64,000 bases of DNA, from the NCBI GenBank assembly GCA_034226945.1, contig CP120453.1, positions 434,001 through 498,000 of the forward strand. Direction: 5' to 3'. Each line of letters begins with the position of its first letter. The stretch's first letter is position 1. The translations under genes and the position numbers were made by a program. Source of the DNA: Picochlorum sp. SENEW3. Taxonomy: Eukaryota. The notes beneath the pieces are model-generated. The model was not told the origin of the DNA and made no database searches. It worked only from the letters and a program-made list of their open reading frames with translations. Shown here in pieces: positions 56,431 through 62,551 of this stretch.

Positions 56431-56784
56431 ATATCTGTTTCCACCCATCATCTCTTTCTTTCTTTTATTTTACCCGTGTGCCTCATTATTTAATAATAAT
56501 ACATTATTATTCCTGTGGTAATCATGAGGATTACAACTACACCCACCCAGTACCGCGCCGCGTCAGATTCGCCCAAAATCAAATTTCCACTCTCGCAGAC
56601 ATTTAGACATGAGCAAATTCACCCAAAATCTCAAATATTCGCAGATTTAGGATCAGTACAGCAATAAAATATATGATTGATCATGGTTCAATCCGTTAAT
56701 ATACAATATTACAATCAAAACATCGACATATATATGATGCATCATGGCATATGCCCGCATGGAGTGGAAAGAGAAGAAGAGATC

Positions 56785-59700
56785 TCATTCTGTCCAACCA
56801 CATCGCCTCTTGAATTCTGTTCTGCCTTCCGCACTCAAACCCATGTCATCCATGAGTTCCTCCATTTCTTCATTTGTTCTTTTTCCATGCTTGTATTGTT
56901 CTATCTCATAGATAAGCCACTTCCCTAGACCGAACTTCCGTGGTCCATTCCCATCGTTGAGATCATATTCAGCATTCCTTTCTGCCTCGGTTTGTTGGGG
57001 GGTTTCGCTGAAATCGACATCATTCTGATGCAGTCTCCTGCGCTCCCTGAGAGCTTGACGCTTCTCTTCGCGAACCTTGGAATTCACACCCCGTGTCCAA
57101 GTGCGAGATGAATACAAATCCCGAAGCACATACCTGCTTCCCTCTCCAATATGAGAGAACTCTTTTCTGATGACTTCTCTTCGCTTTTTCTTGTCGTACA
57201 TATGTGCCACATCGACAAATCGTGAGGAATCATCCAATTCTGACAAACCCAGCGTTTTCTTGATTCCTACAAGCATCCTTTCATTTCCCCAGTATGCCTG
57301 CTCATGAATCTCGCCAGTACCTTTGTCTTCAAATGTTCCCAAGAACCAGATGACGTTAGTTGGGAAAAATCGATCCTCATCAGCATTATCTTTTTGATCA
57401 TCCACATCTTGTATGACAATCTTGTCCTGTAGGCGTTTTGGGATTCGCCTCTTTGTTATCCATACTCGCCTGACCGTCTCTGGAGAAGGAATCTGCTCTT
57501 TTGGAAATTCCATCTCTCGCATTGTATTCACGATTTTTCCACCGAGTTCTCTAGTACTCTCTCCAGTGACAGTCTCTTCCTTGCCATTATTGGAAATGAT
57601 TGCTCTTCTTCGTTTCCCACGAGATAGGGCAGTATTCTCCCCATTGGTTACCACTCGAAGATTGTCTGATCGATTCAAACCAGTTTGGCCATTGATATGA
57701 TCGACATTTAGCTTCTCTATGGCACCGTCATCTCGCCTCCAGACAGTCTTGATCTGAACCCCATCTTCATCTGTGCGCCTGGCAATGTCTTCAAGTTGAA
57801 ACTTGTGGAGGAATTTTTTAGAGAGCTCGCGTTTCCCAAGTACTGCAGCGCACAACTTTGTGAATGCTATGGCACATGAAATATATATACTTTCTCCCGC
57901 AATGCGCATCCCTCTGTACCTATTCCTTTGTATAATGTCCATGACATCAGCCAGGAAATACCACCCATCACCATACTTCCTCCAGATGCATTGTTCCTCC
58001 TCAAAGAAAAGGACATTTGTGCATCTCACAACGTCAACCCACTTTTCAGATAAATTCGGATCATCTAATTTCCAGTTGTCTCCATCTTTTTCTAGGCGCA
58101 CCATTGGCAAACCAGTCTCCCCGAAACTGTCCTTGCATCTCTGAGCAATGGCCTTCCTCTCGTTAGACAGATGCTTGAATTGAGTGTAGCAAACCTCCAG
58201 ACTTTGCCCTCTAAAAGTCTCCCGAGAGCGTGGTCGTTTATTATTCGCCTGTTGCTTTGCATCAGCAATCCTCAAAAGGGAAGGTTGATTATAGGATGCT
58301 TGGATGGTGAGGTGGTCGGTACTCATCCCTGGCCCACATTTCTTAAGGAATTGAGATGGAGTCCACCCATATTTTGCCATGCCTACCACTTGATGTATTT
58401 TGAACAGCTTGCGTACTTTTTTTTTTTTGGATTTAGCAGCGATAAAAAATTTCGGGCGCAATTGCCCGGTGACGGGAATTCCCAAAGAGTCACCTTGTGA
58501 ATTGATGCACCGGCCCTCAGTAGACACAAACACGTGGGAATCATCTCCAATTGGCACACTACCGAAAAAAAAGTCTTGATGGAGCGTATAGCGCCATTGG
58601 ACACCACCATCTGTCGTATATTGCCTAGGCAAGAGCACATGACTAGCATACGTCCCCGTAGCGTTCAACTGTCGGGAGAACTTGATTGCCTCTGGAAATA
58701 CTAGCACTCCGAGCAACCTTTCTGTACTCATCTTCAGCCCCTCTTTAACAAATTCATACAGATGAATACTTTCGGGAAAGATGTGTTCATACTTTGACGG
58801 AATGACTTCATTCTCCTCGAAGTGGCGGATTCTCCATCCAGGGCCAATATGGGGTTGCAAAAAATCTTCCATGCACTGTGTGAAAGATTGCCTAATGTCT
58901 TCCAATGTCTTTTGCTCACTGCCTACCTTTTGCTCGATTGCTCTCTCAAGTGCATCGTAGAGCCCCTCGACGCCGTTTTCATACTCTGAAGCAAGTAGAG
59001 CAATCAAAGCCATTGAAAATTCCTGCAACTCGTCATCCAGACAAATCTCCTTTGTGATTTTGACCACCTCTGGAATGCCTTTCGAATCCACATATTCTTG
59101 ATTTTGGAGATATCCCTTTTGAAGTTTGTAATGCTCCATCAAAGGGATTTTGATGGCTTCATCAGCTGAAGCAAATATCTCATCTGACGCATCACTGGCT
59201 GAAATGACGGTATTCACATCAACCAGTCTCTGGACTGCAGCGCTTTGTCTCATCTTCCTCGAACATGCGATGAGACGGTCTTTAAAATTGTCTATTTTCC
59301 CAGAGCAGGTACGCCTAATAAAGTCTGATAAATAATCGAGATCATTCAGACCTTTCTCGATGATGCTTCTGTTTTCGCTATTTAATGTGCATAAATATGC
59401 CTCTTGAATGGATGCTGCTGTGTTTCCCTCTGATGATGGGTGAATATCCTTACTACCAGATGCCGAATCAGAGCCGACTACATCTACAACAGCATCAATA
59501 GTATGTGAATGAATGTGCCAAGAGAGATACACATCTCAATGTATGTACCGAAAACATACATCATAACAACAACATACCTTGTTCTCTATTGCCCCTACAG
59601 CCAAGGACAGGAGCTGTCTCCTTCTTCTTGGGCTTGGCAGATGGCTTCCTTTTCAATGGTCGCTGAGATGAATTCTCCTGTCGATTTGCTGAGGCCATTT

Positions 59701-60093
59701 GTGACCCAGCGTTCTGCACGATATTCTCCTCATCCAAATCTGAAGGCTGGGAGTCTGGAATCACAGTGGACCACGCGGGTGCCTCCTGTAAAGGTGCCTT
59801 CCTTTTCCTTGTCATATGGCCATGCTGCACATCACATATTTGATCGATCAGGCACATGTGTTCTACACAATGCAACATTTGCAAGAATCATCACAAGCAA
59901 TGAAACGCACCTTTTGCACTGCTGCTTTTGTCCCATTTGTACCAGACCTGTGTGCATCTACAGCTGCTGTAGACGCCCGCTTAACATTCCGGCTACGCCT
60001 GACATCCCTAACCCTCTTACCCTCCACAGTCCTGGGATTCAAAGGCTGGTTGGTAGCCTTTAGCTTGGCAGGTGGCTTCCTTTTCCTTGTCAT
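56785..60093 (-). CDS. Large (~1042 aa) NUMOD4/tandem-HNH endonuclease-like protein; predicted exons 60093-59911, 59824-59578, 59483-56785
   Basis: VDHINGQTGLNRSDNLRVVTNGEN (HNH_3-like); second degenerate IHQVV..TDHL..N..LR.AD..QQ..NK; VSTEGRCIN (NUMOD4-like); exon phases 0 and 1 give 3129 nt in frame. Confidence 0.7.
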
Positions 60094-60515
60094 GTGGATA
60101 GGCTGCACATCACATATTTGATTGATTATACATTATATATCTATATATGTTTTGCAACACAAGCAATCAAACGCACCTTTTCTCCACGATGTCTCTGGGC
60201 ACTATTGCAGTAGCACTATTTGAGCTTCCCAAGCATGCAATGCTGTTTGTACAGTACAATTCTCTATTACTGCACATATACACATATTCGGCGTGATACA
60301 ATTGAAAGATAGGTGCTTTTTAGACATGATCAAGAAAACAAGACAGTTTCGCGACGTAGCAATTCAACCATGACTCACCTGCTTATCCGTTCACCCTCAG
60401 GGTGATTGCAAACATAAAATAATACTAAATACATCCAATTTGACTGCGCAATACCCGCTGTAGCGATACTATACAAAATATCGCGATTGCGTCATCGCAG
60501 ATCTAAACCTAAATA

Positions 60516-60802
60516 GTAACCGGCAAGTAACCGGCAAGTAACCGGCAAGTATCCAGCAAGTAACCGGCAAGTAACCGGCAAGTATCCAGCAAGTAACCGG
60601 CAAGTAACCGGCAAGTATCCAGCAAGTAACCGGCAAGTAACCGGCAAGTATCCAGCAAGTAACCGGCAAGTAGCCGGCAAGTATCCAGCAAGTAACCGGC
60701 AAGTAGCCGGCAAGTATCCAGCAAGTAACCGGCAAGTAACCGGCAAGTATCCGGCAAGTAACCGGCAAGTAGCCGGCAAGTATCCGGCAAGTATCCCTGC
60801 AA
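60516..60802. repeat. Tandem 11-bp minisatellite GTA(A/T/G)CC(G/A)GCAA, 25 full copies plus one degenerate copy, with 33-bp higher-order period
   Basis: Directly read: A,(AAB)x4,(ACB)x2,AAD,ACD with A=GTAACCGGCAA, B=GTATCCAGCAA, C=GTAGCCGGCAA, D=GTATCCGGCAA. Confidence 0.98.
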
Positions 60803-61196: not shown

Positions 61197-61272
61197 GGGG
61201 CTTTCTGACACTCTTTGCTGACGACAAATGTGACATCTCTCCTCGCTGCAGAATAGAGTGTCAGAAAGCCCC
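61197..61272. repeat. Perfect 18-bp inverted repeat with 40-nt spacer
   Basis: GGGGCTTTCTGACACTCT (61197-61214) / AGAGTGTCAGAAAGCCCC (61255-61272). Confidence 0.95.
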
Positions 61273-61489: not shown

Positions 61490-62551
61490 TCAGGGATCTT
61501 GGGACTTCTGGAGGTTCAGATCTGTAGTATCGAATCTATACAGCCCTGTTTCATCGGTTCTGAAATGTGGTGCATCCCCAAAATCTAGAGCATCAACATC
61601 TTGTGGCAAATCCACCACATCCTCCCAAAAAATATCATCATTATTACCCTCCATACGAGTAGGTACTCTCGTGTCGTGAGTAGGATCTGAATCTGTAGGA
61701 GGTGCATTCGCTCTGGTATCCACCGGTTGACTGTTGCCTTTGCATGGTGGATTTGTATTATCATCTATCTCCCTGACAGGCTCCTCCATCTTTGATCTCT
61801 TATCATTTGATTCCTCGATTGTTGGATCTTCAATCACACTAGAAGCTGTTAAAAGATCATACTGTGCATTTCTTGCCTCCTTTAGTTTCTCACATTTAAG
61901 TTCTTTGCCACTACGGATAGTCCTCAACATCTCTTGCAGCCCATCACTCCAGTGATACACCTTCCTGAGAGGTTCCCCTCTAGAGCTTGTATGGCGTTGG
62001 ATCGAGGCCATCAGCAGGACAAGGAGGCATACCCGTCGCAGCCTTTGACTTGGGCCTGTGGTACTGAGACATCTTTGCAGACACATGAGTGCGTTTGTAG
62101 CTTTCGCATTGTTTGCAAAATCTTCCCTCATCTCCTTGATGAGGCGACTCTTATGAATCGCATAAAGTATGACTGTGTCGCAGTTCTTCTGTGTCTTGGG
62201 CCTGTCTGCACAGATGTCGAGATCTGGACTCTCCTTTGCGACCGATCCGATGAATACTTGATTGACCCCTTGCACTGAGACTGGGACTGGACATTCAATT
62301 TTAAATGCCATATGTGGCGGAGTAGTCGTGCCTTTCTGAAATTGCCTCATATCCACGAGATTCTCGAAGTCATGCCCACACATAATTCGAATCTCATTCG
62401 GTTGCATGGAGGAATTCTCAGAAGATCTGTTGTCACAGATCTTCCCCCTCACATGTTCATCAAACTCACCGCAACATATCTTATCGTAAAGATCATCAGT
62501 AGCCCAAGCGTTTTCACTGTTTGAAGACTGATGCATGTCGATTTCAAGCAA
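61490..62551 (-). CDS. Orphan hypothetical protein (~350 aa; start uncertain)
   Basis: Uninterrupted ORF with an acidic low-complexity tail; no recognised domain. Confidence 0.55.
   Translation of the reverse strand: MLEIDMHQSSNSENAWATDDLYDKICCGEFDEHVRGKICDNRSSENSSMQPNEIRIMCGHDFENLVDMRQFQKGTTTPPHMAFKIECPVPVSVQGVNQVFIGSVAKESPDLDICADRPKTQKNCDTVILYAIHKSRLIKEMREDFANNAKATNALMCLQRCLSTTGPSQRLRRVCLLVLLMASIQRHTSSRGEPLRKVYHWSDGLQEMLRTIRSGKELKCEKLKEARNAQYDLLTASSVIEDPTIEESNDKRSKMEEPVREIDDNTNPPCKGNSQPVDTRANAPPTDSDPTHDTRVPTRMEGNNDDIFWEDVVDLPQDVDALDFGDAPHFRTDETGLYRFDTTDLNLQKSQDP

Follow-up and report, generated by a model that had tools for sequence, protein, structure and literature searches.

Among described systems, the closest to the gene reported here are I-HmuI and the phage homing endonucleases of the HNH_3 type, i.e. 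group 2 of the His-Me finger nucleases, for which Table 1 of PMC5714182 lists 795 viral, 3,288 bacterial, 13 archaeal and 28 eukaryotic sequences, with 125 chlorella-virus sequences placed in a separate HNH_3 group by the same source. According to PMC3384342, I-HmuI is an extended monomer in which the active-site histidine acts as the general base and an asparagine at the start of a helix binds the single metal ion. With HNH_3 (I-HmuI-type) nucleases being overwhelmingly viral and bacterial, a spliced and expressed nuclear gene with tandem HNH_3 modules stands out. Such a gene lies on the minus strand of a 64,000-nucleotide stretch of the alga Picochlorum sp. SENEW3 (GenBank assembly GCA_034226945.1, contig CP120453.1, positions 434,001 to 498,000 of the forward strand), which as a whole is referred to as the window and whose first letter is position 1. 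With a probability of roughly 60%, we take it to be a nuclear-targeted, I-HmuI-like HNH_3 nuclease gene of the free-standing homing type, which is either selfish or only recently co-opted. A first-pass annotation, made from the letters and their open reading frames, had proposed at this place a nuclear, intron-containing algal gene with a phage- or giant-virus-style NUMOD4-HNH-HNH architecture.

The nuclease body is one stop-free frame of 916 codons at 56785-59535 on the minus strand, the strand of all features of the gene, and residue numbers refer to this frame. All motifs quoted in the first-pass annotation sit within it where they had been placed: VSTEGRCIN (58527-58501), IHQVV (58398-58384), TDHL (58320-58309), QQANNK (58254-58237), VDHING (57705-57688), GENTAL (57642-57625), GESTRELGGKI (57564-57532) and SPETVRR (57486-57466). 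The intact-looking HNH motif belongs to what we call module 2 (residues 488-650; 57586-58074). On these residues alone the Pfam HNH_3 profile (PF13392) scores 27.3 bits (E=2.8e-6), above its gathering score of 24.8, and on the whole frame it narrowly misses this cut-off with 24.6 bits (E=1.9e-5), the match lying at residues 598-635 (57631-57744). The same profile is found in 8 of the 12 family members scanned (best E=9.5e-10), eight members spanning the region in alignment A1, and HNH-endonuclease PHROGs match module 2 in P0001 and in all five relatives that span the region. D612, H613, N615, N621, N625 and N634 are invariant in all six aligned members, and hhalign places module 2 and a profile of 13 small HNH_3 proteins in register at these residues (E=3.2e-11, probability 97%). 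PADLOC adds a weak 'HEase' (homing endonuclease) match on module 2, and an NCBIfam scan of the protein gave no relevant match. Judged by its sequence, module 2 is a bona fide HNH_3 domain, just as the first-pass annotation had it. Since all residues needed for the I-HmuI mechanism are present, it would be expected to act as a nuclease, cutting DNA with one divalent metal ion in the manner of I-HmuI.

The N-terminally adjoining module 1 (residues 300-452; 58180-58638) consists of beta-hairpins with a VSxEGRCI motif followed by a degenerate HNH-like motif. Its layout mirrors that of module 2, i.e. beta-hairpins, a helix and then G-x-(S/T)-x-D-H, and in the six-member alignment G341, R342, I344, D407, H408, Q429, A430, N432 and P435 are invariant. 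The Asp-His pair is retained (D407 H408 at 58312-58317), and in the hhalign register the Asn of 'NLR' corresponds to Leu and the metal-binding Asn to the invariant Gln429. With both Asn positions lost, module 1 may bind DNA as a pseudo-nuclease, a weak second active site being a further possibility. By hhalign, it matches P0016, a small protein with two HNH_3 motifs, at E=0.0031 and the 13-sequence HNH_3 profile at E=0.0029 (probability about 10%; reversed control 0.7), and phrog_3593 matches it at E=0.0014 with no stretch passing alone. In the ESM Atlas, residues 295-460, i.e. a segment excluding the Pfam HNH_3 match, score 0.94 to HNH_3-bearing clusters in 22 of 30 hits and 0.93 to viral clusters, 86% of whose members carry NUMOD4, in 6 of the 30, on a scale on which shuffled proteins score 0.9 in 4-10 of 100 cases. 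Taken singly, these indications of an HNH-like module are statistically weak, and the sources agree with one another; module 1 is probably a diverged copy of a NUMOD4/HNH_3-type module, whose likeness to NUMOD4 is found at the motif level (VSxEGRCI). Of the degenerate HNH proposed at first pass, then, what stands is this weak but concordant support from hhalign, PHROG and the ESM Atlas, and what does not is a Pfam match.

The clear loss of both Asn positions in module 1 would also fit a catalytically dead DNA-binding protein, i.e. a transcription or chromatin factor that has kept the recognition scaffold of an HNH homing endonuclease. A nuclear-type leader combined with several putative DNA-binding modules points in the same direction, and so does the frequency of HNH_3-AP2 proteins among the nearest relatives outside the family (13 of 28). 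AP2/ERF factors, for which an origin from HNH-AP2 endonucleases has been proposed, provide a parallel. However, module 2 retains every expected catalytic residue, invariant in six of six members, and no AP2 domain is detectable in the algal protein, which makes this reading distinctly improbable.

That the gene is a genuine, expressed nuclear gene of Picochlorum sp. SENEW3 is seen from its annotated model, its transcripts and its surroundings. The last 897 codons of the frame are 100% identical to residues 198-1094 of NCBI entry P0002 ('hypothetical protein PSENEW3_00002397 [Picochlorum sp. SENEW3]', 1,094 amino acids), and the annotated five-exon model could be rebuilt exactly from the window sequence. 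Exon 1 (60379-60434) contains the annotated start codon at 60434 and is followed by exon 2 (60173-60269), exon 3 (59911-60102) and exon 4 (59578-59824). The last exon (56785-59483) holds the entire nuclease body, with 897 annotated codons (56788-59477) and the stop codon at 56785-56787. On either side, the neighbours are ordinary nuclear genes, coding for a dual-specificity phosphatase/HAD protein, a DEAD-box helicase, NOB1, an RPE65-type dioxygenase, a CRAL-TRIO protein and guanylate kinase. The G+C content at third codon positions is 0.449 (0.41-0.52 in the neighbours) and the codon adaptation index 0.731 (0.715-0.778 in the neighbours). With cellular neighbours and neighbour-like codon properties, the gene is therefore a resident of the nuclear genome and neither a contaminant nor a fresh insertion.

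Parts of the stretch are present in 18 of the 19 public runs listed, which come from 6 studies, and contigs of four runs (X1, X3, X7 and X9) were aligned to the window at a likeness of at least 90%. The spliced contigs among them stem from related strains that are 90-99% alike to the window. In X3 and X7, the skipped parts run CT...AC on the plus strand, i.e. GT..AG on the minus strand: X7 joins 59483 to 59578 (skipping 94 nucleotides), and X3 joins 59824 to 59911 (86, in two contigs), 60102 to 60177 (74) and 60269 to 60379 (109), while one further X3 joint, from 59824 to 60177, skips 352 nucleotides and omits exon 3. Two of the four annotated introns are matched exactly by these joints and the other two agree at one boundary each. 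For intron 4, the RNA acceptor lies 6 nucleotides upstream on the coding strand (exon start 59483 instead of 59477) with the frame kept, and it is exactly this acceptor at which the first-pass annotation had ended its feature. For intron 2 (60103-60176), the RNA donor at 60176/60177 lies 4 nucleotides upstream of the annotated one at 60172/60173. When donor 60176 is applied to the window sequence, exons 1 and 2 fall out of frame, so that translation would start at the Met of MTRKRK in exon 3, the first two exons would be untranslated and the protein would be about 50 residues shorter; because the spliced contigs come from related strains, either start codon is possible for SENEW3.

Pieces covering the nuclease body are contained in the metatranscriptome run X9, and in the contigs of all four runs the nuclease modules are free of joints, all introns lying within the 5' Lys/Arg-rich leader. 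The gene is intron-containing, as first proposed, in this leader; the nuclease body is a single exon. The suggestion of NLS-like exons in a nuclear gene agrees with the Lys/Arg-rich composition of the spliced 5' exons, and the leader that they encode would serve as a nuclear localisation signal. Exons 3 and 4 are tandem duplicates of each other, intron borders included (59578-60181), with repeats D2 and D4 spaced by 266-278 nucleotides and 89-93% alike. Both exons are Lys/Arg-rich and open with the MTRKRK motif; as exon 3 is left out in one spliced contig, the longer and the shorter isoform would share this basic motif at their start. The sole joint in the last exon is of a different kind, as it goes back by 281 (57073 to 56793) with 31 other letters in between in X3 and X7; related strains seem to carry the C-terminal module of the protein as a tandem duplicate of about 104 codons.

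The family to which this protein belongs is tiny. Among 1.84 billion representatives, 15 proteins are found at E<=1e-3 and 5 at 1e-30, and they come from Picochlorum and from unassigned contigs. The long members have 885-1,497 residues, are 24-44% identical to the frame and reside on unassigned ENA, JGI and Logan contigs of 3.6-8.3 kb. A scan of metagenomes gave 506 pattern matches with one relative, the contig L001, whose 4,581 bp are filled by a single open reading frame of the family. Two truncated P. renovo proteins are also members, and a search for shorter proteins with residues 480-810 returned only P0007, a paralogue in SENEW3 itself. Two fragments, P0006 and P0009, jointly span the protein and break within module 2; each lists a longest contig of 8,262 bp, so that they are perhaps on one contig, which would then suggest an intron or a frameshift. 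The best homologues are thus few, patchy and very divergent and do not form a conserved, vertically inherited eukaryotic family, which had been named at first pass as the outcome that would speak against a captured homing endonuclease. About 270 residues in the N-terminal part (frame residues of roughly 60-330) are conserved in all long members extending that far, including the single-reading-frame metagenomic homologues, and are therefore ancestral to the family. What is specific to the SENEW3 gene is only the Lys/Arg-rich leader of roughly 145-197 residues, and the initial idea that a viral nuclease had gained an N-terminal region of about 450 residues has to be given up. A literature search found no paper on the family, the supplements of the Picochlorum genome papers, which possibly list the gene as horizontally transferred, not being covered by it.

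As a side observation, two relatives carry near their start a motif resembling the PCNA-interacting box, i.e. QGNIRSYF at residues 12-19 of the L001 reading frame (L001 34-57) and IPSYF at residues 4-8 of P0006; it is absent from the window protein and from 13 other family proteins checked.

Outside the family, the closest protein among the 1.84 billion representatives is P0016 (224 residues, E=7.8e-5), which has two intact HNH_3 motifs in tandem, so that the algal family is not alone in having HNH_3 in tandem; among the 28 relatives of P0016, 13 join HNH_3 with AP2. The endogenisation of a viral endonuclease, as originally envisaged, found no backing in the searches for relatives: a tblastn search of 50,697 phage records gave none, a single-protein scan of IMG/VR matched no pattern and a scan with the six-sequence alignment matched 179 stretches with no relative among them, and 73 pattern matches in GTDB genome contigs likewise contained none. 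A structure search of BFVD with the whole model gave nothing at E<=0.001; among the 50 rows listed, 10 belong to phages or giant viruses and are HNH, homing or NUMOD1 proteins, the best being a 'Homing endonuclease [Myoviridae sp.]' at a sub-threshold 4.6e-3. No viral genes adjoin the gene in the window. The architecture is of the phage or giant-virus style, and an ultimate origin from either is plausible, but it cannot be demonstrated from the DNA and proteins searched.

An important question is whether the gene behaves as part of the core genome. At 90% identity, the HNH protein is the 1 member of its cluster, whereas two of the neighbouring genes fall into clusters of 11 and 12, with members from P. 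renovo, from both haplotypes of Picochlorum sp. BPE23 and from an MMETSP transcript. A BLASTP comparison puts these neighbours at 97.8-99.7% identity to their counterparts in Picochlorum sp. BPE23 and P. renovo, whereas the sole relatives found for the HNH protein in P. renovo have 24.7-26.5% identity, with absence of an orthologue being judged here on the annotated or predicted proteins of one collection rather than on genomes. Between closely related strains, 40 differences are listed (146 more lie beyond these), 33 of them inside the exon of the nuclease body; of these 33, which pool several strains and are counted without a control gene, 8 are synonymous and 25 non-synonymous, and they spread over codon positions 1, 2 and 3 as 13, 10 and 10. 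In these listed differences there is no sign of purifying selection on the HNH gene among close strains. A separate attempt to read presence or absence in one haplotype from a count of one contig was rejected, a single contig being found for the neighbouring control genes too.

Such counts, spread evenly over the codon positions, have a neutral look, and together with the patchy distribution and the enrichment of phage and giant-virus HNH endonucleases among the weak BFVD matches (10 of the 50 rows listed) they could also reflect a recent insertion of a giant virus or another mobile element, now a decaying relic that would still be open by chance and transcribed incidentally. We regard this as highly improbable, however, since 916 stop-free codons at about 45% G+C are unexpected by chance, the motifs are conserved across members that are merely 24-44% identical, codon usage is ameliorated, and viral genes next to the gene as well as viral relatives in the phage records and IMG/VR are missing.

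Rather, the tiny, divergent and patchy family, the fragmentary paralogues and the lack of any sign of purifying selection mean that the HNH gene behaves as an accessory element and not as a core gene, and it is the same combination that leads us to a homing-type gene, selfish or recently co-opted. The product, with about 1,050-1,100 residues, would most likely cut or nick DNA at specific sites as a monomeric, nuclear-targeted enzyme of the HNH_3 (I-HmuI) class, in which a hairpin-plus-two-helix element behind module 2 and a C-terminal module may extend the contact with DNA. The gene would have resided in algal nuclear genomes for long, yet it would still be selfish or have been co-opted only recently.

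A bolder version concerns the flanks of the gene. Contigs of other strains stop matching the window at 56558/56560 (X1 and X7) and at 60485 (X3 and X9), and three diverging 30-mers that were searched are absent from the whole 64-kb window. These ends hint at a roughly 3.9-kb cassette with possibly different surroundings elsewhere; an empty site was not recovered alongside the diverging flanks. If so, the gene could be an active nuclear homing endonuclease and a natural gene drive, with the cassette (about 56560-60485) cutting and copying itself into cassette-free chromosomes of diploid Picochlorum. Two tandem HNH modules, one of them remodelled, would then let a single polypeptide handle both strands. 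We consider this version quite improbable as it stands.

The counterpart at the other end of the spectrum is a fully domesticated host nuclease, which would act in repair or recombination coupled to replication or would cut invading viral DNA, and which would change fast because of an arms race or because its target has shifted. That the gene is expressed and spliced, with an intact frame, invariant catalytic residues, host-like codon usage, housekeeping genes as neighbours and no terminal repeats around it, is in line with such a role, as are the PCNA-box-like motifs at the start of two relatives (the L001 reading frame and P0006); and the non-synonymous share of the strain differences would fit diversifying selection as well. 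Yet no similarly identical orthologue was found among the annotated or predicted proteins of Picochlorum genomes in which the neighbouring genes reach 98-99.7% identity, the family is tiny, with fragmentary copies among its members, the window protein itself is without the PCNA-box-like motif, and PADLOC, as said, yields only a weak match to a homing endonuclease. Full domestication therefore appears rather unlikely to us, and a selfish or recently co-opted homing-type gene remains the reading that we prefer.

Several observations weigh against this preference, in addition to the limited basis of the orthologue search and of the pooled strain counts given above. First of all, the intact 916-codon frame, the invariant catalytic residues, the splicing, the ameliorated codons and the lack of flanking terminal repeats (none was found by a repeat search of the window) fit a domesticated gene equally, and neither mobility nor cleavage has been observed. 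The diverging ends of the contigs could equally be fast-evolving intergenic DNA or assembly breaks beside a tandem repeat. For module 1, Pfam finds nothing at E<=10; P0006, which contains module 1 only, matches no HNH PHROG at E<=0.05; and a comparison of module 1 with module 2 by hhalign, as a test of internal duplication, is not significant (E=0.2). The NUMOD4 and NUMOD1 modules that had been read from the sequence at first pass have no counterpart in Pfam, there being no NUMOD4 match (PF07463) at E<=10 in the frame or in residues 295-460, no NUMOD1/IENR1 match at E<=10 on residues 640-720 and no match to either at E<=0.1 in 12 family members. In the AlphaFold2 model of the whole protein, with a mean predicted local distance difference test score (pLDDT) of 59.8, both HNH motifs are below 50 and modelled as disordered, so that the two beta-beta-alpha-Me folds for which structure prediction had been recommended were folded in neither case, and a crop of residues 230-480 was unusable with a mean of 39.4. 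Foldseek with the whole model gave 0 matches in the PDB at E<=0.001, and VIA-align found 0 of 48,161 chains at Z>=5, the best (Z 4.4) being helical hairpins only. These null fold searches, including that of BFVD, were done with a model in which the motifs are not folded and are no evidence against an HNH fold. At the sequence level, a single-sequence search of the PDB gave 0 hits and a profile search 3 hits at E 0.09-0.68, none of them meaningful.

The remaining parts of the protein can be described in less functional terms. The N-terminal domain (residues about 55-300; 58636-59373) is family-specific and mostly helical, with AlphaFold2 means of 10-residue blocks mostly at 68-94 and a dip to 47 at residues 141-160, and it has no match in Pfam, the PDB or BFVD and no known fold. 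Following module 2, residues 641-700 (57436-57615) are the stretch that had been likened to a NUMOD1 helix-turn-helix; besides lacking the profile match, it is predicted by AlphaFold2 to form a beta-hairpin (strands 643-649 and 652-658) and two helices (661-674 and 685-695) at block means of 54-82, so that a helix-turn-helix DNA-binding element is possible, the predicted fold being compatible with it but not diagnostic. Next comes a conserved beta-beta-alpha region (residues 717-812; 57100-57387) with a pLDDT of 66-84. An AP2-like reading of residues 715-812 was tried and rejected (hhalign E=0.3, with 0.21 for the reversed control), and Pfam shows no AP2 match in 12 family members. The last module of about 100 residues (812-916; 56788-57102) recurs elsewhere in tandem, i.e. 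in P0008, P0012 and P0022, where phmmer finds it repeated beside Pfam-significant helicase-associated (HA) domains. In the HNH protein itself there is no Pfam match to the HA domain (PF03457) and a sub-threshold one to DUF7039 (0.0069), and by sequence the link to HA domains is a lead only. Residues 717-916 also exist as stand-alone small proteins, P0007 (205 residues) and P0010 (214 residues), of which P0007 is encoded by a second SENEW3 gene on another contig and is 73% identical to the C-terminal part over 198 residues.

Upstream of the gene, three further features were noted. About 80 nucleotides from annotated exon 1 lies a perfect-looking tandem array (60515-60793), which can be described as 25 copies of an 11-bp unit or as 8.5 copies of a 33-bp unit at 97% match, and near whose edge the contigs of other strains part from the window at 60485. 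Farther upstream, an intergenic inverted repeat (61197-61272) has 24-nucleotide arms that are 92% complementary and 28 nucleotides apart. The directly adjoining upstream gene (61493-62536, minus strand) encodes a 348-residue protein without a Pfam family, which has a 97.7% identical paralogue (PSENEW3_00002961) on another SENEW3 contig and a further, 98% identical copy on a metagenome contig; the nuclease gene has a direct neighbour that is likewise lineage-specific and duplicated.

Overall, a nuclear HNH_3 gene that differs between near-identical strains would inform us on how selfish nucleases settle in nuclei, i.e. how they gain introns, a nuclear import leader and host codon usage, and whether they stay selfish or become co-opted. 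Moreover, Picochlorum is a fast-growing production alga, in which a native nuclear-targeted nuclease or nickase with a long recognition site could serve genome engineering.

How far, then, does this protein resemble the known systems? With I-HmuI and the phage HNH_3 homing endonucleases (His-Me finger group 2 in PMC5714182; PDB 1u3e) it has in common the Asp-His base and the Asn ligand motif as well as an extended multi-module layout in which the motif is preceded by DNA-binding beta-hairpin elements and followed by helices, and it is probably monomeric, as PMC3384342 describes for I-HmuI. In contrast to I-HmuI, it is five to six times larger, contains two tandem modules of which the first is degenerate, adds a conserved N-terminal domain of about 270 residues without a known relative and an HA-like C-terminal module, and lacks any match to the NUMOD4 or NUMOD1 profile as well as any sequence hit among PDB chains, and its gene is nuclear, spliced and eukaryotic and does not reside inside a group I intron. 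P0016 and its relatives, i.e. metagenomic HNH_3 or HNH_3-AP2 proteins, come closer in one respect, since P0016 has tandem HNH_3 modules and the same motif register as modules 1 and 2, but they are small (150-390 residues), both HNH motifs of P0016 are intact, AP2 (13 of 28) is absent from the algal family, and they have neither the N-terminal domain nor a nuclear leader. The HNH endonucleases of giant viruses (including chlorella viruses, group 33 in PMC5714182) and jumbo phages are likewise large multi-domain HNH_3 proteins. To these, however, there is no structural match at E<=0.001 (BFVD) and no sequence match in the phage records or IMG/VR. The hosts of chlorella viruses are algae of the class to which Picochlorum also belongs. 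Finally, whereas the algal nuclease is of the HNH_3 class and without a known host function, the HO endonuclease of yeast is a LAGLIDADG protein derived from inteins, with mating-type switching as its host function, and it sets the precedent for a homing endonuclease that has turned into a regulated nuclear gene with a nuclear import signal.

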